Assembly (NCBI GenBank): GCA_051251855.1
Contig: JBPOGI010000007.1
Coordinates: 264,984 to 328,983, forward strand
Source of the DNA: Roseibacillus sp.
Lineage (GTDB): Bacteria > Verrucomicrobiota > Verrucomicrobiia > Verrucomicrobiales > Akkermansiaceae
DNA: 64,000 nucleotides
Direction of reading: 5' to 3'
Within the stretch, counting starts at the first letter, position 1; the number at the start of each line of letters is the position of its first letter. Made by a program: the position numbers and the translations under genes. Below the pieces are notes generated by a model. That model was not told the DNA's origin, did no database searches, and was given only the letters and a program-made list of their open reading frames with translations. Shown here in pieces: positions 49,667-64,000 of this stretch.

Positions 49667-49899
49667 GACGGCCACTTTCCATATCACACAATCGTGAAAT
49701 AAGGCCCGCACTCACCCTCCTTATTTTAAAAAACGCCCTTTTTGAATAATAAGGAACCTCTTGCACCACTCTCGTAGACCGTCAATTTTCCTGAGAACCA
49801 GCGCCTCAGCGGAAAGATTGCCATCTGTCAGAAAGCAAGATCTTGCTCACCCTCTCCCAGTCCTTGCCCAATCCCGTTGACCTGACATTCTCTTTCAGA

Positions 49900-52050
49900 A
49901 TGCCTGCCGAAAACCACTCTCAAATCGCCAACTTCATCTGGGGAATCTGCAACCTCCTTCGCGGCCCCTACAAGCGCAACGAATACCGCAAAGTCATTCT
50001 CCCTCTCACCGTCCTCAAGCGCTTTGATGCCATTCTTGCTCCCACCAAGAAGGCCACCATCGCCGAGCACTCCACTCTCAAGGGCAAAGGCGAATCCATC
50101 ATCCGTGCCAAACTCACCCGCGTCACCGGAGCCCAATTCTACAACCTCTCGCCGCTGCACTTCTGCCTACCCGGCGCGACCGACGCCGAGGGCAACCGCC
50201 TGCCCTCTCTTCTCGACGACCCCAACCAACTCGCCCCCAATCTCAACAGCTACATCAACTCCTTCTCTCCCAATGTCCGGGCCATTATGGACAAGTTCTC
50301 CTTGGACCAACAAATCTCCAAGATGGCCGAGAAGAACCTCCTCTACGAAGTGGTCAAAGCCTTCTGCAAGCCCGACCTCGACCTCTCCCCCGAAGCCGTC
50401 GACAACACCCAGATGGGATACGTCTTCGAAGAGCTCATTCGCATTGGCGCGGAGCAATCCAATGAGGAAGCCGGAGAGCACTTCACCCCGCGCGAGGTGA
50501 TCCGCCTCATGGTCGACCTCCTTCTCTCTCCCGAGAAAGACCTCACCCAAGGCCATATCGTCAAGACCATCTACGACCCTGCCTGCGGAACGGGCGGCAT
50601 GCTCTCCGTCGCCGAAGCCTACCTCAAGGAACTCAACGAAGAATCCAACCCCCACCTTTTTGGACAAGACTGGAACGACGAAGCCTGGGCCGTCTGCAAG
50701 TCCGACATGCTCATTAAGGGCGAAAACGCCGAGAACATTCATCAGGGCGACACCTTCACTGCCGACGCTTTCGATCGTGATGCCGAAGAGAACAAAATCA
50801 CCTTCGACTACATGCTCGCCAACCCGCCCTTTGGCGTCGATTGGAAGCAACAGTTCAAATACATTGACGCCGAAAAAGAAAGCCTCGGCTATGAAGGCCG
50901 CTTCGGTGCCGGTCTTCCTCGCAAAAACGACGGCGCCCTCCTCTTTCTCCAGCACATGCTCGCCAAGATGCGCTCCCCGCGCGATGGCGGCAGTCGTCTC
51001 GCCATCGTCTTCAATGGCTCTCCCCTCTTCACCGGTGATGCCGGCAGTGGCGAATCCAACATCCGGCAATGGATCATCGAGAACGACTGGCTCGAAGCCA
51101 TCGTCGCCCTCCCGGAACAGCTCTTCTACAACACCGGAATCTCGACCTACGTCTGGGTCCTCTCCAACCGTAAAGAAACGCGCCGGAAAGGCAAAATCCA
51201 ACTCATCGACGGGCGCAACTTCTGGGTCCCTATGAAGAAAAGCCTCGGTAACAAGCGCCGCAAAATTGGCGACCCCAAAGACAACGAGCGCGACCCCGAT
51301 CACATCGGAGACCTCAGCCAAATTCATGGCAACTTCATCCACGATGAATCTCGTAAGTTCATCATCGACGAGAAAGAGAAGGAACTCATCGTTTCCAAAG
51401 TCTTCGACAACGACGACTTCGGCTTTCACAAAATCACCGTCGAGCGCCCCCTTCGCCTCAACTTCCAAGCCAGTGCCGAACGCATCGCCCGCCTCGAAGA
51501 GCAGGCCGCCTTCCTCAACCTCACCACTTCCAAGAAGAAGAACGAAGCTATTCGCCTGAAAGAAATTGAACTGGGCAAAGAACGCCAAGAGACCATCCGC
51601 AAGCTGTTAGAAACTTTCCGCACCGCGACCGAGGAGCAACTCTTCCAAGATCGCAAAGAGTTTCTCGCCACCCTCAAGCCCCTCGACCGCGAAGGCGGGG
51701 TCCGCCTCACCGCCCCCGAACTGAAAGCGGTCCTTGCCGCCCTCAGCGAACGCGACGAAAGCGCACAAATCTGCCTCAAGCCCAACGGCGACCCCGAGCC
51801 CGACGCCGACCTCCGCGACACCGAAACCGTCCCTCTCAAGGAAAGCATCACCGAATACTTCGAGCGTGAAGTCCTCCCCCACGCGCCCGACGCTTGGATT
51901 GATGAAAGCAAAACCAAGGTTGGCTACGAAATTCCACTCAACCGCCACTTCTACGTCTACGAGCCACCCCGCCCTCTTGCAGACATCGAAAGCGACCTCA
52001 AAGGGCTCGAATCCGATATTGTGGAACTACTGCAAGACCTCACCGCATGA
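49900..52050 (+). CDS. hsdM: Type I R-M methyltransferase subunit
   Basis: IANFIW, GEHFTPREV, YDPACGTGGML, NPPF, LFYNTGI. ATG 49900. Confidence 0.96.
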   Translation: MPAENHSQIANFIWGICNLLRGPYKRNEYRKVILPLTVLKRFDAILAPTKKATIAEHSTLKGKGESIIRAKLTRVTGAQFYNLSPLHFCLPGATDAEGNRLPSLLDDPNQLAPNLNSYINSFSPNVRAIMDKFSLDQQISKMAEKNLLYEVVKAFCKPDLDLSPEAVDNTQMGYVFEELIRIGAEQSNEEAGEHFTPREVIRLMVDLLLSPEKDLTQGHIVKTIYDPACGTGGMLSVAEAYLKELNEESNPHLFGQDWNDEAWAVCKSDMLIKGENAENIHQGDTFTADAFDRDAEENKITFDYMLANPPFGVDWKQQFKYIDAEKESLGYEGRFGAGLPRKNDGALLFLQHMLAKMRSPRDGGSRLAIVFNGSPLFTGDAGSGESNIRQWIIENDWLEAIVALPEQLFYNTGISTYVWVLSNRKETRRKGKIQLIDGRNFWVPMKKSLGNKRRKIGDPKDNERDPDHIGDLSQIHGNFIHDESRKFIIDEKEKELIVSKVFDNDDFGFHKITVERPLRLNFQASAERIARLEEQAAFLNLTTSKKKNEAIRLKEIELGKERQETIRKLLETFRTATEEQLFQDRKEFLATLKPLDREGGVRLTAPELKAVLAALSERDESAQICLKPNGDPEPDADLRDTETVPLKESITEYFEREVLPHAPDAWIDESKTKVGYEIPLNRHFYVYEPPRPLADIESDLKGLESDIVELLQDLTA

Positions 52051-53387
52051 AGCCATATCCAAAGTTTAAGAACAGCGGGGTTGAGTGGATGGGGAGGGTT
52101 CCTGTTCATTGGGAAGCGCTGCCATTAAAGTGGTGTGTTTCTACTCCAGTCACTGACGGACCTCACGAAACTCCGGAGTTTATTCCGGCAGGGGTTCCAT
52201 TTGTGTCCGCAGAAGCGATTCAAAACAGTAAAATCAATTTCAAAAAAATTCGAGGCTACATCTCCGAAGAAGATGACTCTCGATTTAGTAAAAAATACTC
52301 ACCAATGCTCCATGACATTTACATGGTTAAATCTGGAGCAACGACTGGTCGTGTGGCGATGGTCGAGACCACTGATCATTTTAACATTTGGTCGCCACTT
52401 GCTGCGATTCGCTGCGACAAGGGCCTGATTTCTCCAAAATTCATGTTTCACTATCTTCATTCGAGTGAGTTTCAAACGGCCGTAGAACTTCACTGGAGTT
52501 TCGGAACTCAACAGAATATTGGGATGGGTGTTATCGAAAACATACACGTCCCCCTTCCCCCGCTCCCCGAACAAGAAGCCATTGCCAAATTCCTCGACGA
52601 ACGCACGGCCAAAATCGATACCCTCATCGCAAAAAAGCGCACCCTCATCGCCACCCTCAAAGAAAAACGATCCGCCCTCATCTCCCACACCGTCACCCGA
52701 GGCCTCGACCCCACCGCCACCCTCAAACCCTCCGGGGTCGATTGGCTTGGTGAGGTTCCTAAGCATTGGAAGGTTAAGCATCTGGATCATCTTGTCACAG
52801 TTAAGGCTCGGCTTGGTTGGAAAGGATTAACGGCATCGGAATATGTCGATAAAGGAGCCATCTTTTTGTCAACGCCCAACATAAAAGGACAGGGGAAGAT
52901 CGATTTTAAGAATGTAAACTTCATCACAAAAGAGCGTTACTTAGAATCCCCTGAAATCATGCTGCAAAAGGGAGATGTTCTTTTAGCAAAAGATGGTTCC
53001 ACTCTCGGCATAACTAATTTTGTGAGAGAACTTCCTGCGCCTGCAACTGTAAATAGCTCTATTGCCGTCCTTCGCTCTAACAAAATCAACAGCCCATTCC
53101 TATGGAGATGGCTAACCTCAGAATACATTCAAAATATAATCCAGAGTAAGAAAGACGGACAGGGTGTGCCCCACCTTTTCCAAGCAGACATTCGAAAATT
53201 TACCGTCCTCCTGCCTCCACTTTCTGAACAAACCGCCATCGCCGAGTATCTCGATCAACAGACCGACAAAATCGACAAGCTCACTGCTAAAGTCCAAACC
53301 GCCCTCGACACCCTCGCCGAATACCGCCGAGCTCTCATCACAGCCGCCGTCACCGGAAAAATCGACGTCCGCGAAGAAATGTCTTAG
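52047..53387 (+). CDS. hsdS: Type I R-M specificity subunit (two TRDs)
   Basis: Repeated SGVEWMGRVPVHW / SGVDWLGEVPKHW, two PPLxEQ motifs and LITAAVTGKIDV. ATGA overlap with hsdM. Confidence 0.96.
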   Translation: MKPYPKFKNSGVEWMGRVPVHWEALPLKWCVSTPVTDGPHETPEFIPAGVPFVSAEAIQNSKINFKKIRGYISEEDDSRFSKKYSPMLHDIYMVKSGATTGRVAMVETTDHFNIWSPLAAIRCDKGLISPKFMFHYLHSSEFQTAVELHWSFGTQQNIGMGVIENIHVPLPPLPEQEAIAKFLDERTAKIDTLIAKKRTLIATLKEKRSALISHTVTRGLDPTATLKPSGVDWLGEVPKHWKVKHLDHLVTVKARLGWKGLTASEYVDKGAIFLSTPNIKGQGKIDFKNVNFITKERYLESPEIMLQKGDVLLAKDGSTLGITNFVRELPAPATVNSSIAVLRSNKINSPFLWRWLTSEYIQNIIQSKKDGQGVPHLFQADIRKFTVLLPPLSEQTAIAEYLDQQTDKIDKLTAKVQTALDTLAEYRRALITAAVTGKIDVREEMS

Positions 53388-53461
53388 CCCTTCATCAAGA
53401 TGGTCCTCCCAGCGGGTTGTATACTGGCGCGCATCACTTTTTGTGAAAGGTGGATTTCAGA

Positions 53462-53957
53462 GAACCCTGAAAGGGTGACCTATGACAGCCTAGGGCAAGC
53501 GGAGCGACGCCCTAGGTTGGAAGCAACCGCAATTTTGGTTGAGCAAGAGACTTCTTTGTTCATCAACGGGCCCGAAGACCATTGTGCAAGCGGGTTAACG
53601 GGCGAAGCCGGGCGCTGTTATACCGAGCCTTCAGCCTCCACGGCTCAGAGACCTCCCACCTAGGGCGTTGCCCTAGGCTTCCCTATTTCAGGGCTTTGCC
53701 CTTCTCGAACCCTGAAAGGGTGACCTATGACAGCCTAGGGCAAGCGGAGCGGCGCCCTAGGTTGGAAGCAACCGCAATCTTGGTCGAGCAAGAGGCTTCT
53801 TTGTTCATCAACATGCCCGAAGACCATTGTGCAAGCGGGTTAACGGGCGAAGCCGTGAGCTGTTAGACCGGGCCTTCAGCCCTCCACGGCTCAGAGACCT
53901 CCCACCTAGGGCGTTGCCCTAGGCTTCCCTATTTCAGGGCTTTGCCCTTCTCGAACC
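53462..53957. repeat. Tandem ~245-bp direct repeat (2 copies) of a REPIN-like palindromic unit
   Basis: Units start GAACCCTGAAAGGGTGACC at 53462 and 53707. Each has inverted CCTAGGGC...GCCCTAGG hairpins at both ends. Confidence 0.9.
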
Positions 53958-54062
53958 TCTGAAACATCTCATCCCCATACTCAACCCCAAATCACAATTT
54001 GTGATGCGCGGCAGTATAGCCGAAAGTTAAAGTCGACTTCGGAACGCCCCTCACACAACCAG

Positions 54063-54367
54063 AGTGCTGGAGGCACGGCCAGATGGTAGCCGGGGTGCAA
54101 GCGACGAAGGAGCGCAGCCCCCGGATCCCACCCCTAGAAATATCTGGCTGAGCGTGGGATGCGGAAGTTCTCACCTCATCCCGAAGCCCATTATCGAGCT
54201 TCTTCTCAGGAAGACGGCCTCCGAGTGACTCACTTGCTTTCGATGCTGCTTAAATCTCTGCGAGAAGCCCTTCGAATACTCGCCATCACCGGCTTGTTAA
54301 TTCGAACCCTCAACAACGGAACCCCGGATTCCATCCGGGGCTACCTTCTCGTCGTGCCTCCAGCACT
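54063..54367. mobile_element. 305-bp MITE/REPIN-like element
   Basis: Perfect 15-bp terminal inverted repeat AGTGCTGGAGGCACG...CGTGCCTCCAGCACT, with imperfect extension inward (GGTAGCC / GGCTACC) and internal hairpins. Confidence 0.7.
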
Positions 54368-54410
54368 TTTGGGATCACACGGGCCGTCCTGCCGTCTGAA
54401 TCCCATTTTT

Positions 54411-54491
54411 TTAGCCACCTCATTTCCAGACCTCGACGGCATCGCCAAATGGCTCAAATATCGCGCCTACGAGCTCGGAGGAGCGGTCTAG
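54411..54491 (+). pseudogene. Possible 3' remnant of an FRG-domain gene
   Basis: ATSFPDLDGIAKWLKYRAY resembles the xxLFPDLDGLA C-terminal signature of FRG proteins. The match is short. Confidence 0.45.
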
Positions 54492-54501
54492 AAACGATCA
54501 C

Positions 54502-54600
54502 ACACCATTACACACCTTTTTTGGTGTAACATGGTGTCTCGTCTCTCTTTCCGCTTGCCATCCCCGCATCACACACCACCATACACCAATCTAAGTGTAT
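54502..54600. promoter_or_regulatory. ACACC-based operator-like repeats upstream of the ATPase gene
   Basis: ACACCATTACACACC-T6-GGTGTAACATGGTGT (54502-54537); ACACCA at 54573 and 54583; ATACAC-N8-GTGTAT (54581-54600). Confidence 0.6.
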
Positions 54601-54607
54601 TATTAAA

Positions 54608-55909
54608 ATGGAATCCTCGCCCCCTCTCACTCAAAACCTCTGGGAACGCTTTGGATTTCGAGGAAACCCCTTTGACACCAACCCCTTACCCCTGGACTAC
54701 GGCTCCGGACTCACCGTCATCAACGCCTACATTGAGCGTTCCGGCAAATTCCCACCCGGTGCCCTCCTCCAGAACGTGCTCAAAAACCCGGGCGGCGGTC
54801 GCCTCGTGGTCGAGGGAGAACCTGGGGTTGGCAAGACCACCTTCGTCAATTACCACCGCTACCAATGGGAACACCTCGGCAGTCCCGGTCTGCTCTCACC
54901 CACTACCGAAATCTCGGTGACCCGAGGCTGGACCACCCGCACCTTTCTCATCTCTCTCCTCAGCGCACTGAACGCCCGCATCCGGCTCGAATTACCCCAG
55001 GACAAACCTGACCCCTTGGTAGAAGAAGTCTCGGCCATCACCAGCGTGCAACGTTCTCAAGACGGCGGATTGGGCATTAACGCCACCATCCTCGGCTCGG
55101 GGGGAGGCTTCAACCGCTCCCAAACCACCGCCCTCACTCCCGGCGAAGTCCCCGAGAACGAACTCCGCTCCTACTTGACCCGCCTCATCACAAAGGTGCG
55201 CGAGGACCTCAAATTCGATGGCGTGATCTTCCACCTCGACAACATGGAGCGCTTGCGCCCAAACAATCCCAAGGAGCTAACTCAATTCTTTGAAGACATT
55301 CGCGACCTCATTCAAGAACCCAACGCCTACTTCATCTTCGTGGGCTATCCGGGCATGTTCCAAGAAGTGATCGCGCCTGCCTCCCGAGTGCATAGCATCT
55401 TTTTTGACAAACCTCTCCTCCTCGAACCCCTCACTCGAAAGGAAATCGATGAGGTGATCGAACTGCGTTACCAAATCCTCGCAGCCAAAGACAAAAACTG
55501 GACCGCCCCCGTGGGCCCCGATGTCATCGACTATCTCTACGAGACCTTTCATGGCAAAGTGCGCGAAATCATGAACGCAGTGGCCTCGCTCTTCACCCAT
55601 CTCCCGGACAGCTACGCCGACCCTCTGACCCTCACCGAATGCCGGGACTCACTCTCTTCCATTCGATTGGCCGAAGCCAAAGCCACCCTCACCAAAGCAG
55701 GCCTCGAAGTCTTTCTCGAAGCCGCCCGCCTCAAACGCTTCTTCCCCACCCAACTCGCCCGCCAAACGGGTCGCCGCCCCAACGCCATCACCAACCTTCT
55801 ACCCGAACTCCAGAAGGCCAACTACATCACCAAGACCGAAAAAGAAGGTCGCACCCAATGGTATGAAGTGGCCACCAAATTCCACGTTCTCGCTGACCTT
55901 GAATCATGA
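54608..55909 (+). CDS. P-loop NTPase (STAND/AAA+-like) with C-terminal winged HTH
   Basis: FGFRGNPF, Walker A GEPGVGKT, Walker B VIFHLDNME, GKVREI, and C-terminal PTQLARQTG...LPELQKANYI...WYEV. Confidence 0.85.
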   Translation: MESSPPLTQNLWERFGFRGNPFDTNPLPLDYGSGLTVINAYIERSGKFPPGALLQNVLKNPGGGRLVVEGEPGVGKTTFVNYHRYQWEHLGSPGLLSPTTEISVTRGWTTRTFLISLLSALNARIRLELPQDKPDPLVEEVSAITSVQRSQDGGLGINATILGSGGGFNRSQTTALTPGEVPENELRSYLTRLITKVREDLKFDGVIFHLDNMERLRPNNPKELTQFFEDIRDLIQEPNAYFIFVGYPGMFQEVIAPASRVHSIFFDKPLLLEPLTRKEIDEVIELRYQILAAKDKNWTAPVGPDVIDYLYETFHGKVREIMNAVASLFTHLPDSYADPLTLTECRDSLSSIRLAEAKATLTKAGLEVFLEAARLKRFFPTQLARQTGRRPNAITNLLPELQKANYITKTEKEGRTQWYEVATKFHVLADLES

Positions 55910-58900
55910 GCCAAACCACTGAAAAAGCCTTTGAAACGCGTGCCGAGGAACTTCTCCTCGAGAACGGTTGGGTCAACGGCAGCAACGCCGACTGGGACAA
56001 GAAACTTGCTCTCTTCCCCTCCCGCATCACCCACTTCATTGCTCGAAGCCAACCCGAGCTCTGGGACCAGATGAAGAAGGCCCACGGCGCCGATCTGGAA
56101 CCCATGCTGATCAAGAGTTTGGTGAAAGAACTCGAGATCAAGGGAACGCTGCACATCCTCCGCCACGGTTTCAAATTCTATGGCAAGCTCTTCAAGCTGG
56201 CCTACTTCCGCCCCGCCCACAATCTCAGTTGGGACGTCCTCGAGCTCTTCAATCAGAACGAGCTCACCGTCACCCGCCAAGTCCCCTGCCATCCCGCCAC
56301 CAATGCCACTGTGGATATGCTTTTCGCGCTCAACGGGCTCCCCATCGCTACCATTGAGCTGAAGAACCCCGGCACCGGACAAACTTGGCGCAACGCCATC
56401 ACGCAATACAAGAACGACCGCGATCCCAGAACCCCTCTCTTCGAATTCAAAAAACGAGCCTTGGTTCACTTCGCCATCGACCCCGACGAAGCCTACATGA
56501 CCACAAGGCTGCGAGGCGACAGCACCTACTTCCTCCCCTTCAACCGCGGCAGCCACCCCAACGAGGTCAAATGCGGTGCCGGCAATCCCCAACACTCATC
56601 CGGCTATCGCACAGGCTACTTGTGGGAAGAAGTCTTCTCCCGGGAGAGCTTCCTCGAGATTGTGGGCAGCTTCATGTTCATCGAGAAGAAGGACGAAAAG
56701 ATCGAGGACGGAAAAGGAGGCCACAAGCGCATCACCAAGGAGACGATGATTTTCCCCCGCTATCATCAACTGCGTGCAGTGCGCCGTCTGGTGCGCGCCA
56801 CTCAAACCGAGCAAACGGGTTACCGCTATCTCATCCAACATTCTGCCGGCAGCGGAAAGACGAACAGCATCAGTTGGCTCTCCCACCGCTTGGCCAGCCT
56901 TCATTCCACCGAGGACAAAAAAATCTTCGACTGCGTGATCGTGATCACGGACCGCAAGGTCCTCGACCGTCAACTGCAAGATGCCATCTTCCAAATTGAG
57001 CACCAACAAGGAGTAGTCGCCACCATCGACCAAAACTCGAAACAACTCGCGGAAGCTCTTATCGACGGCACCAAAATCGTCGTCACTACCCTCCAAAAAT
57101 TCCCCTTCATCCTCAAAGGACTTCTCACCGCCGCAGGAGCAGAGAACGCTGACAAAGCAAACGAAGAACAACAAGAGGAAGCCAAGGAATGGGCTCAACA
57201 AATCGCTTCCCGAAAGTATGCCGTCATCATTGATGAAGCGCATTCCAGCCAAACCGGGGAAGCCGCTCGGGAAATGAAGGCCATTCTCGGTGAATCCGAG
57301 GAAGATGAGGAAGAAGACTGGGAAGAGCGCTTGGCCCGGGTGCTGCAATCGCGTGAACACAAGCCCAACCTCAGCTTCTACGCCTTCACCGCTACCCCCA
57401 AAGGCAAGACCTTGGAAACCTTTGGACGCAAAGAAACTTCTGAAACCGCTCCTGAAGCCTTCGATGTCTACAGCATGCGCCAAGCCATCGAAGAAGGATT
57501 TATCCTCGACGTTCTCACCAACTACACCACTTACGCGACCTACTACCGCTTCGTCAAAAAATCGGAAGACGATCCCAACGTGCCCAAAAAGAAAGCAAAG
57601 AAGGCTCTCGCAAAGTTTCTCTCCCTCCACCCCTACAACATCGGCCAACGGACCGAAATCATGGTGGAGCACTTTCGCAACAAAGTGATGACCAAGCTCA
57701 ATCATCGCGCCAAGGCAATGGTGGTCACCCAATCCCGCGAGCACGCGGTCCGGTATAAGCTCGCCTTTGAAGACTACATAAAGACCCAAGGCTATGACGA
57801 CATCCGGCCTTTGGTTGCCTTCAGCGGCACGGTCAAACACGAGGACTTCCCCAATGAAGGTTACACCGAACCGTCCATGAATACGGATGTGGTGACGAGT
57901 GAACCGATCGGGGAAGGGAAACTCCCCGCCCGCTTCAATTCTCCCGATTACCAAGTCCTTCTCGTCGCCAACAAGTACCAAACCGGATTCGACCAACCCT
58001 TGCTGTGCGCGATGTATGTCGACAAGCGACTCGATGGCGTTCAAGCGGTGCAAACTCTCTCGCGCCTCAATCGAAAAATCCCCGGCAAGGAGGAACCCTT
58101 CGTTCTCGACTTTGCTAACCAGCGCGCAGACATCGAGAAAGCCTTCAAGCCCTACTACGATACCACTTTACTCGAAGAGGAGTCCGACCCCTCTCAACTG
58201 GAGGTACTGAAGCATGAACTCGATGCCTTTCAGATTTACCACGAGAGCGAAATCGAAGCCTACGCCCGCATTTTTTACCGCCCTGTTGAGAAACAAACGG
58301 CAGCAGACCATCAGCGCATGGAAAAGCACATTCAGCCTGCGGTGGATCGGTTCAACAATCTCGAAGAGGAAAAGGAGCAAGACACCTTTCGTAAAAAGCT
58401 CAAAGGCTACGTCTCGGTCTATGGCTTCTTGAGCCAAATTCTTCCCTACACCGACCCTGACCTCGAAAAGCTCTTCTCTTTTGGAAAATTTCTTCACCCA
58501 CATCTTCCCAAAGACCGGGCCAAGAGCGTCCATCTCGACAACAGAATTCAACTCGAATACTACCGCATCCAGACCACAGGAACTGGCAACATCGTGGTTG
58601 CGGAAGGCGAACCGAAAGGAGTCAAAAGCCCAACCGATGTGGGCACTGGGAAGGAAAAGGAAGAAGAGGCTCCCCTCTCTGAGATCATCGCGGTCCTCAA
58701 CGATGCTTGCGGGACCGAATTTGGAGAAGAAGACCGTCTCTTTTTCGAGCAGATTAAGGAAAAAGCGATCAACGACCCAAAGGTCGTCGATACCGCCAAA
58801 TCAAATCCCCTCGACAAATTCGAACTGGGCGTGAAGAAGCTCATCGAAGACCTCATGATCCAACGACTAGGCGAAAACGACGATATCGTGACCCGCTATA

Positions 58901-58986
58901 TGGAAGATCCCAAGTTCCAAGGAAAAGCCCTTCCTATCCTAGCGAAGGAAATCTTTAAGGAAGTGAACAAAAAAGAAGCTGAATAG
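55906..58986 (+). CDS. hsdR: Type I R-M restriction subunit
   Basis: VDMLFALNGLPIATIELKN (PD-ExK), QHSAGSGKT, DEAH, FTATP, YQTGFDQP, VQTLSRLNR. Confidence 0.96.
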   Translation: MSQTTEKAFETRAEELLLENGWVNGSNADWDKKLALFPSRITHFIARSQPELWDQMKKAHGADLEPMLIKSLVKELEIKGTLHILRHGFKFYGKLFKLAYFRPAHNLSWDVLELFNQNELTVTRQVPCHPATNATVDMLFALNGLPIATIELKNPGTGQTWRNAITQYKNDRDPRTPLFEFKKRALVHFAIDPDEAYMTTRLRGDSTYFLPFNRGSHPNEVKCGAGNPQHSSGYRTGYLWEEVFSRESFLEIVGSFMFIEKKDEKIEDGKGGHKRITKETMIFPRYHQLRAVRRLVRATQTEQTGYRYLIQHSAGSGKTNSISWLSHRLASLHSTEDKKIFDCVIVITDRKVLDRQLQDAIFQIEHQQGVVATIDQNSKQLAEALIDGTKIVVTTLQKFPFILKGLLTAAGAENADKANEEQQEEAKEWAQQIASRKYAVIIDEAHSSQTGEAAREMKAILGESEEDEEEDWEERLARVLQSREHKPNLSFYAFTATPKGKTLETFGRKETSETAPEAFDVYSMRQAIEEGFILDVLTNYTTYATYYRFVKKSEDDPNVPKKKAKKALAKFLSLHPYNIGQRTEIMVEHFRNKVMTKLNHRAKAMVVTQSREHAVRYKLAFEDYIKTQGYDDIRPLVAFSGTVKHEDFPNEGYTEPSMNTDVVTSEPIGEGKLPARFNSPDYQVLLVANKYQTGFDQPLLCAMYVDKRLDGVQAVQTLSRLNRKIPGKEEPFVLDFANQRADIEKAFKPYYDTTLLEEESDPSQLEVLKHELDAFQIYHESEIEAYARIFYRPVEKQTAADHQRMEKHIQPAVDRFNNLEEEKEQDTFRKKLKGYVSVYGFLSQILPYTDPDLEKLFSFGKFLHPHLPKDRAKSVHLDNRIQLEYYRIQTTGTGNIVVAEGEPKGVKSPTDVGTGKEKEEEAPLSEIIAVLNDACGTEFGEEDRLFFEQIKEKAINDPKVVDTAKSNPLDKFELGVKKLIEDLMIQRLGENDDIVTRYMEDPKFQGKALPILAKEIFKEVNKKEAE

Positions 58987-63298: not shown

Positions 63299-64000
63299 TC
63301 AATCGATGGGATAAGGGGCAACATAAACACGGCCAAATTCCTCACTATTTCCAGCAGGTAAGGGCAGAACCACTTCAATACCAGTCCCCAAGAAAGAAAG
63401 ATTCTCGAAAGTCCAGTTGTCTAGGTCCGGCGAAAGCTCGAGTCGATAGTAGCGCGCAGCAGAGGTGTCGAAAAAGATTTCTCTCCCTCCCACTCCATCG
63501 GGACGAATATCGATACAGAATACTGAACTCGGGTCGCCTGGATTCGTATCTGCGAAATACTCATCTAGATTGCTCATTCCGTCTCCATCGAAGTCCAAAA
63601 CAGCATCTCCCGGATTACCGGCATCCAAGAAAGGATAGAGTTTCTCCCAGATATCAGGCATTTCATCGCCGTCGGAGTCTTCCACGGGAATCAAGGCTAA
63701 TCCACTTTGCTGATCCACATCAAATCCGTCCCCGTTACCGCCGTCGAATAGAACTTGGATATTCTGGTTGGTTAAGGTTGTTCCCAAACGAGATTCAACA
63801 TCATGACCATCGCCATTTCCGCCATCGAAAAGAACATCGATATTTTCGTTCGTAATGGTTGTTCCCAAACGAGTTTCGACATCATGACCATCTCCATTTC
63901 CGCCATCGAAAAGAACATCGATGTTTTCGTTCGTAATGGTTGTTCCCAAACGAGTTTCGACATCATGACCATCTCCATTTCCGCCATCGAAAAGAACATC
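63299..64000 (-). CDS. 3' end of a large secreted repeat protein (runs off window end)
   Basis: Frame is open to 64000. 27-aa repeats, then DSDGDEMPDIWE...DFDGDGMSNLDEY and a C-terminal beta-domain ending FGRV. Confidence 0.85.
   Translation of the reverse strand, partial: DVLFDGGNGDGHDVETRLGTTITNENIDVLFDGGNGDGHDVETRLGTTITNENIDVLFDGGNGDGHDVESRLGTTLTNQNIQVLFDGGNGDGFDVDQQSGLALIPVEDSDGDEMPDIWEKLYPFLDAGNPGDAVLDFDGDGMSNLDEYFADTNPGDPSSVFCIDIRPDGVGGREIFFDTSAARYYRLELSPDLDNWTFENLSFLGTGIEVVLPLPAGNSEEFGRVYVAPYPID
63720..64000 (-). repeat. 81-bp coding tandem repeat (about 3.5 copies visible)
   Basis: Unit LGTTITNENIDVLFDGGNGDGHDVETR, near-identical at DNA level. Confidence 0.92.

Follow-up and report, generated by a model that had tools for sequence, protein, structure and literature searches.

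Genes and features of the locus

The DNA analyzed here (the window) is a 64,000-nt stretch of a Roseibacillus sp. genome (GenBank assembly GCA_051251855.1, contig JBPOGI010000007.1, positions 264,984 to 328,983 of the forward strand). It carries a gene for a 433-amino-acid (aa) Orc1/Cdc6-like AAA+ ATPase with a C-terminal domain of the winged helix-turn-helix (wHTH) type (54608-55909, + strand), described here from its open reading frame (ORF), structure models and an alignment of homologs. An earlier note on this DNA had placed the ORF between hsdS, encoding the specificity subunit of a type I restriction-modification (R-M) system (52047-53387, +; two Pfam Methylase_S matches and PADLOC Specificity_I), and hsdR, encoding the restriction subunit (55906-58986, +; nuclease and helicase motifs present), with the ATPase stop and hsdR start codons sharing ATGA (55906-55909). 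Both observations were confirmed. In four runs from a single study, contigs span the ATPase-hsdR junction at even depth; these runs are possibly the source of the assembly and so are not independent of it.

Upstream of hsdS lies the methyltransferase gene hsdM (49843-52050, +; Pfam HsdM_N and N6_Mtase, PADLOC MTase_I, catalytic motif at 327), the actual start of which is perhaps several codons downstream of the called position 49843. The catalytic motifs of the flanking type I genes were present. The description of the ATPase gene as embedded in a type I R-M operon is thus correct for its flanks but not for contiguity with hsdMS, as a 1,220-nt gap holding structured repeats separates it from hsdS. 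The larger element in this gap (53420-54018, no strand assigned) is a tandem pair of repeats of ~245 nt each, internally palindromic and enclosed in 27-nt inverted arms, with a folding z score of -4.2 relative to 20 shuffles. These repeats are almost unique within their own genome, and the element looks like an insertion of the REP/MITE (repetitive extragenic palindrome/miniature inverted-repeat transposable element) type in the R-M slot, parting hsdS from the ATPase cassette. It is followed by a REP-like pair of 29-nt inverted repeats (54063-54367, no strand assigned), with a weak match in one genome of the same genus. A 110-aa ORF at 54159-54491 is doubtful as a gene, as it matched no convincing Pfam family and overlaps the repeats.

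A predicted Orc1/Cdc6-like ATPase with an amphipathic insert

Two AlphaFold monomer models (predicted local distance difference test [pLDDT] scores of 87.8 and 92.3) comprise an AAA+ core and a lid, with a winged helix at the C terminus whose recognition helix is formed by residues 391 to 403. In the models, these parts take up the whole 433 aa and no domain follows the wHTH. The top Foldseek match was archaeal Orc1 on DNA (E value, 1.3e-8; template modeling [TM] score, 0.42). In a second look at the Foldseek matches (VIA), Cdc6/Orc1 on origin DNA reached Z 18.0 (root mean square deviation [rmsd] 6.2, 326 residues aligned), archaeal ATPases reached Z 14.5 to 16, and TnsC reached Z 14.8 (rmsd 4.2, 268 residues aligned). 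Chains of NRC, CED-4 and Apaf-1 ranked below Orc1/Cdc6 in the fold comparison. The earlier note had predicted the C-terminal wHTH, the lack of a nuclease or HEPN effector (no Pfam HEPN match was obtained) and a protein distinct from PrrC-like ABC ATPases, all in agreement with the models and fold matches. Its label "STAND-like" has to be replaced, since the predicted fold is Orc1/Cdc6-like and not that of a tripartite STAND protein.

Likewise, only part of the reported Walker signature was recovered. Walker A is found at residues 70 to 77, while the Walker B region is noncanonical, reading H-[D/N]-N-h-[E/D] across 219 full-length homologs. Of these, 112 have Asp and 104 have Asn at position 211, 217 have Asn at position 212, and an acidic residue is conserved at position 214 (Glu in 157, Asp in 59). 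Arg260 and Arg319 are kept in 194 and 216 of the 219 proteins, respectively, at what we take to be the arginine-finger and sensor 2 places.

The Gly-rich segment described previously is indeed present (residues 152 to 173), within an amphipathic insert spanning about residues 145 to 180. Among 68 homologs, residues 145 to 169 show a two-residue alternation of apolar and polar positions around a near-invariant G-x-G turn. The putative beta-hairpin nature of the insert is deduced from this periodicity alone. The insert is the sole effector candidate of the ATPase.

Profile and structure libraries contributed little further. AAA_22 was the only Pfam match at its cutoff (27.1 bits), no NCBIfam profile came near its cutoff, a sequence search of solved structures returned no match below an E value of 0.6, and no PADLOC model matched the window ATPase, the last as the earlier note had anticipated.

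Predicted operator sites upstream of the ATPase gene

Two predicted operator boxes precede the gene. Box 1 (54500-54539, +; ACACAC-N4-ACACAC-N8-GTGTAA) has the geometry seen in homologs and a likely fourth half-site 4 nt further on. Box 2 (54571-54600, +; ACACAC-N4-ATACAC-N8-GTGTAT), which ends 7 nt upstream of the ATPase start codon, scores 17/18, a value reached by 0 of 40 shuffles. Apart from these two boxes, the 4.96-Mb genome contains no site of this kind. Most close homologs carry GTAAAC-N4-GTAAAC-N8-GTTTAC upstream, often doubled ~44 nt apart; the window keeps the hexamer-N4-hexamer-N8-inverted hexamer geometry with an altered hexamer. The half-site itself differs by clade (GTAAAC, GTAATA, GTTATA or GTTAAC).

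By a pattern-free score, the three-half-site geometry reached 17 to 18 of 18 points, with 0 of 40 dinucleotide shuffles equal to it, at 24 of 74 loci, including the window. Two loci, a duplicate and one that has 28 nt of sequence upstream, were dropped before this count, the palindrome count and the comparison of residue 392 with base 3 below. At 42 of the 74 loci there is a family-like palindrome whose spacer measures 8 nt, compared with 26 for a spacer of 4 nt, 18 for a spacer of 9 nt and 4 to 9 for seven other spacers; the pattern used in this test came from the same 74 loci. A TTG-N/TA promoter-like pair was present in 20 of 32 close loci (6.6 expected), and its -10 element is frequently a half-site.

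No operator site was found away from the gene in the Roseibacillus genome, and hence no regulon. In five other genomes, the pattern occurred at five places, four of them at the gene, with one extra site in one genome; in two of the five genomes an exact match was lacking at the gene too. Among viral contigs, 11 operator-like matches were set aside, as no family member adjoined them and their number was near a rough chance estimate. That the ATPase directly autoregulates through the predicted boxes is the best-supported inference from these sequence comparisons.

Base 3 of the half-site tracks residue 392 of the recognition helix in 42 of 44 labeled proteins. Gln accompanies GTA in 35 cases and GTT in none, while other residues accompany GTT in seven cases and GTA in two; 17 of the 61 rows were unlabeled. 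In a tree from which the wHTH was excluded, five changes were counted for each trait. The window protein was itself unlabeled in this comparison; its residue 392 is Asn and base 3 of its site is still A, and its helix is altered alongside its hexamer. Residue 392 and base 3 are a candidate for a one-residue operator code. Four paralogs with three different recognition helices were observed in one genome (L025, L030, L031 and L034).

Distribution and genomic neighborhoods of homologs

The family comprises 525 representatives at an E value of ≤0.001, and 157 near-length homologs were found among the scored candidates. Nearly all of 120 listed homologs are about 430 aa long, while a subgroup of ~500 aa carries a second wHTH-like domain after the first. 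Two such ~500-aa paralogs (L050, 5573-7075 and 7977-9503) are arranged divergently around one small gene. A search for fused long forms in proteins of 906 to 2585 aa gave one spurious match of 4% coverage, which is weak evidence. Of the loci collected, species genomes supplied 71, a metagenome scan of partial coverage supplied 6 and viral contigs supplied none; judged by their titles, they come from Verrucomicrobiota, Planctomycetota, Bacteroidota, candidate phyla and archaea of the Woesearchaeota type. The gene occurred in none of eight genomes of the same genus, 2 of 150 of the same family (both weak matches) and 4 of 400 of the same phylum, and the family around G533 carries it in 10 of 54 genomes. 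The family is thus patchily spread in bacteria and archaea and is likely a mobile single-gene cassette.

Neighboring genes were scanned with Pfam at 72 loci (42 close loci, within 5 kb; 27 distant loci, where 104 of 141 neighboring ORFs within 3 kb were covered; and 3 more), the fragmentary or neighborless loci L067 to L069, L071, L072 and L076 to L078 lying outside the scan. R-M-type genes were found near 13 of the 72 loci (L015, L027, L029, L030, L031, L033, L035, L058, L040, L041, L047, L064 and L108, of which L027 and L035 are sisters), a count lowered by the shortness of many contigs. Type I genes occurred near only two of them (L015 and L031), neither in the order of the window, and a 19-codon remnant of the hsdS 3' end lies directly upstream of the gene at L020. 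As we read the Pfam tables, toxin-antitoxin, insertion sequence (IS), integrase or other defense-type genes lie beside about 18 further loci. No partner family recurs beside the homologs, and neither does an integrase, transposase or helicase. The closest full-length homologs (L002, L003 and L004; 53 to 55% identity) lie among housekeeping genes. At 5 of 60 loci scanned, a tRNA or transfer-messenger RNA (tmRNA) gene lies within 1.5 kb (L013:9332-9416, L005:1757-1832, L010:2298-2373, L004:10598-10673 and L028:5103-5460); such genes are typical integration sites.

Downstream of the gene, 30 of 50 loci, including the window, have no co-oriented ORF of at least 100 aa within 250 nt. At L029 (PLD-SNF2 helicase) and L033 (a res fragment), the stop of the gene likewise overlaps the start of a restriction or motor gene, and GmrSD, mod-res or methyltransferase genes follow closely at L030, L027, L035, L041 and L064. 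At L033 (2502-13795), type III mod and a MORC-like ATPase gene are followed by an ORF of 123 aa and the cassette; next come a duplicate of a 5' part of res, an IS200-like transposase gene and an intact res. This layout suggests that the entry of cargo duplicates the beginning of the restriction gene. At L027 and L035, the ATPase gene lies directly behind a UvrD-nuclease gene, without an operator, and with type III mod-res next; this may be an operon form that has become domesticated.

The slot between hsdS and hsdR holds other cargo in relatives: an ABC-type ATPase together with HNH, a protein of 594 aa that has a deaminase domain, and GmrSD with an ATPase/DUF3696 protein (L104, L109 and L110). 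Genes for YhcG, HipA, RhuM and IrrE-like proteins precede hsdR in other related operons. The R-M content of the Roseibacillus genome consists of type I genes at three loci and an N6/N4 methyltransferase gene at one, and a second hsdR of this genome (L112; G000:C6:48000-66000) is preceded by a 1,933-aa ORF. Elsewhere in the window, an ORF cut by the window end (63299-63949, - strand) encodes near-identical acidic, Gly-rich repeats of ~27 aa and looks like an extracellular calcium-binding repeat protein.

Possible function of the ATPase

As R-M neighbors are few, the cargo of the slot varies and 30 of 50 loci lack a co-oriented downstream ORF, the gene is best described as hotspot cargo, enriched near R-M genes yet not part of R-M. 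We consider it about an even chance that it is a self-repressing, ATP-switched single-gene cassette of defense hotspots, likely acting as a stand-alone anti-phage switch and here also gating hsdR. In the absence of a regulon, and usually of a gene behind it, the ATPase has to be its own payload, and tight autorepression fits a protein that is costly. Since the hsdR start lies inside the ATPase stop, the same operators would gate hsdR in the window.

The mechanism that we propose builds on the predicted fold class and on a site that is conserved, confined to the gene and, in many homologs, overlapping a sigma70-like promoter. The wHTH domains would very likely read the hexamers, a symmetric pair sitting on the 6-8-6 palindrome, and further subunits would very likely join at 10-bp steps through AAA+ contacts, with Arg260 as arginine finger and Arg319 as sensor 2. 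The resulting short filament over the promoter would then be expected to occlude the -10 box and repress the ATPase gene. The altered Walker B region would probably make the protein a slow nucleotide switch rather than a motor. Infection might lift repression, whether by loss of operator DNA, a nucleotide change or a phage ligand, and the freed protein might conceivably oligomerize off DNA, its amphipathic inserts forming a beta-barrel that harms the infected cell. At this locus, release would also raise HsdR independently of hsdMS, much as a C protein does, as a by-product of landing in a cargo slot. A role as regulator of HsdR, which the earlier note had offered, is plausible to this extent, as an effect of the overlap, but an R-M-specific role does not follow.

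In its most far-reaching form, the model makes the protein both self-repressor and executioner: a filament parked on the operator that, once freed, becomes an AAA+ ring with inserts zipped into a membrane beta-barrel. We regard this pore as improbable. If it were true, an Orc1/Cdc6-type ATPase would have been turned into a pore-forming single-gene immune system common to bacteria and DPANN-type archaea, with a one-residue operator code.

Several observations weigh against a self-repressing anti-phage cassette. The insert is disordered in both models (pLDDT, <50), a deeper alignment left it unordered, and it is short or absent in a few distant homologs. Under the rule applied, 32 of the 74 loci lack the palindrome. 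Two scans found no consensus promoter over the window boxes, so the cassette may depend on read-through or on a nonconsensus promoter. The association of residue 392 with base 3 yields four independent pairs, none discordant (p = 0.125), which is too few for significance, and both the residue and the half-site pattern were picked after the data had been inspected. No homolog was found among the viral contigs, phages and plasmids searched. More than half of the loci have no defense neighbor, most neighbors being housekeeping genes. R-M enrichment keeps the defense link alive, as hotspot cargo rather than as an R-M component, but the rough baseline of 1 to 3% comes from one genome and three families.

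A different explanation is that the protein is purely a controller resembling a C protein, timing or limiting the gene behind it (here HsdR, elsewhere Res, a PLD-helicase, GmrSD or a methyltransferase) with ATP as input, solo copies being leftovers. We consider this unlikely. A double predicted operator on its own promoter and a place directly before a restriction gene do reproduce the C-protein layout as given in passages of a published account (PMC12707154). The overlap with hsdR and its counterparts at L029 and L033, together with the five loci where GmrSD, mod-res or methyltransferase genes follow closely, point the same way. However, 30 of 50 copies have no co-oriented gene close behind, and no regulon was found elsewhere in the genomes scanned, although those 30 are intact with operators kept; moreover, the coupled ORF at L033 is a mere duplicated 5' fragment of res, and a controller has no need for the conserved insert. 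If the ATPase only regulates, it would be a nucleotide-gated controller ahead of type I hsdR alone; the passages of reviews available to us place controllers upstream of whole type I operons and not before hsdR.

Slightly less probable still is a self-regulated sensor of nucleotides or stress, or a self-maintaining passenger, with no anti-phage role, in hotspots that tolerate insertions. The predominance of housekeeping neighbors and the tRNA and tmRNA genes near 5 of 60 loci are compatible with such a gene, as is the fact that, in any of the 68 + 96 members, PADLOC models cover no more than short stretches of wHTH or P-loop. Without a regulon, though, and usually without a downstream gene, the only output of a sensor would be the protein itself, and conflict genes usually show just such a patchy spread over bacteria and archaea, together with enrichment near R-M.

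We think it very unlikely that the protein is a replication initiator or targeting ATPase of an unrecognized mobile element, its boxes being an origin or end. The best folds are indeed Orc1/Cdc6 on origin DNA and TnsC, and the sites recur at 10-bp steps. Yet the boxes overlap the promoter and number only one or two, no plasmid or phage copy was found, no integrase, transposase or helicase partner recurs, and the Orc1/Cdc6 profile scores 12 bits against a cutoff of 181. Least probable of all is the suggestion of the earlier note that the protein is an R-M guard, watching HsdR or HsdMSR for phage inhibitors and triggering suicide as PrrC does: the ATPase occupies the hsdS-hsdR slot, is coupled to hsdR and has an hsdS remnant upstream at one other locus, but type I genes lie near only 2 of the 72 other loci, R-M types differ between clades, the homologs lie largely outside defense loci, and the protein has neither an ABC fold nor a HEPN domain. 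Occupying the hsdS-hsdR slot does not prove a guard role.

As judged from its sequence and predicted structure, the ATPase is an undescribed, effectorless and probably self-regulated variant of the Orc1/Cdc6-clade conflict ATPases. The earlier note had already called it undescribed; we found no description of the family in the libraries and literature searched, although subscription journals and supplements may list one. The family that it defines is compact: an ATPase-wHTH of 430 aa, a predicted operator of 30 bp and a candidate code that links residue to base. Should the ATPase protect against phage, it would be a single-gene system without a known effector, and the insert would point to a new killing mode.

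Comparison with known systems

Archaeal Orc1/Cdc6 (PDB 2qby and 2v1u) and the ATPases PAB2304 (2qen) and SSO1545 (2fna) match the predicted structure over the entire chain, with an AAA+ core, a lid and a wHTH at the C terminus (Foldseek E value, 1.3e-8; TM scores, 0.42 to 0.47; VIA Z, 14.5 to 18). Orc1 is known to read DNA sequence specifically through its wHTH, and the same is predicted for the ATPase. However, the ATPase is 12 to 17% identical to these proteins in sequence, scores only 12 bits with the Orc1/Cdc6 profile TIGR02928 (cutoff, 181.3), has Asn212 (217 of 219) in a noncanonical Walker B region in place of the canonical Asp-Glu, and carries the conserved amphipathic insert of ~30 residues. 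Its sites cover its own promoter and not an origin, and its family is patchy and mostly bacterial.

Tripartite STAND proteins (Avs, NACHT/NLR-like) share only the NOD-type core, which is related to Orc1/Cdc6. The ATPase has no N-terminal effector and no C-terminal repeat sensor, and its homologs are about 430 or 500 aa long. The MNS clade, which was defined in Leipe 2004, and Npun2340-2341 are further STAND-related ATPases. Both are named in another paper (PMC8195603).

PrrC and RloC combine an ABC ATPase with a HEPN anticodon nuclease. They occupy the same hsdS-hsdR slot, but both of their domains are absent here: the ABC-type LSGG signature was not found, no HEPN family of Pfam matched, the only R-x4-H (at 84) lies inside the ATPase domain, and the C terminus is a wHTH. 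Nor is there consistent linkage to type I systems, which were found at 2 of 72 other loci plus one remnant. The PDC-S27 and AAA_14-DUF4143 ATPase-wHTH-nucleases are likewise solo ATPase-wHTH genes, and PDC-S27 gave weak partial PADLOC matches in a few distant homologs (best E value, 1.2e-6). The ATPase differs from them in lacking a C-terminal nuclease, its chain ending after the wHTH or, in the ~500-aa forms, after the second wHTH-like domain.

C proteins are small helix-turn-helix proteins without an ATPase. The ATPase is a 433-aa ATPase-wHTH, here ahead of a type I hsdR, and its family lies mostly away from R-M. In type II R-M systems, according to passages of one account, C proteins bind two sites on their own promoter, and their gene precedes and is cotranscribed with the restriction gene; paired sites on its own promoter, the place before a restriction gene and likely autogenous feedback are the points of resemblance (PMC12707154). 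Among the homologs, a minority sit immediately ahead of a restriction gene. RptR, as described in part of another study, is a small repressor that acts on repeated hexamers at its own promoter, heads type I R-M islands and is strongly tied to them, in contrast to the different hexamer, 433-aa ATPase and weak R-M link found here (PMC12255303).

A parallel for an effector within the ATPase itself is provided by Tmn/YobI and KAP, which passages of one paper describe as anti-phage P-loop NTPases without accessory effector domains and with a membrane element inside the NTPase domain (PMC13001434). By analogy, Tmn may serve as a precedent in kind for an insert-based effector. The look-alike Atlas clusters are unnamed ATPase clusters, with KAP_NTPase labels on a minority of members, and the window ATPase has no PF07693 match; its insert contains no hydrophobic run of 18 to 20 residues that could be a transmembrane helix. 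Overall, Tmn has two transmembrane helices, as far as those passages describe it (PMC13001434), whereas the ATPase has an insert of apparent beta-type alternation and, in addition, a wHTH with predicted operators.

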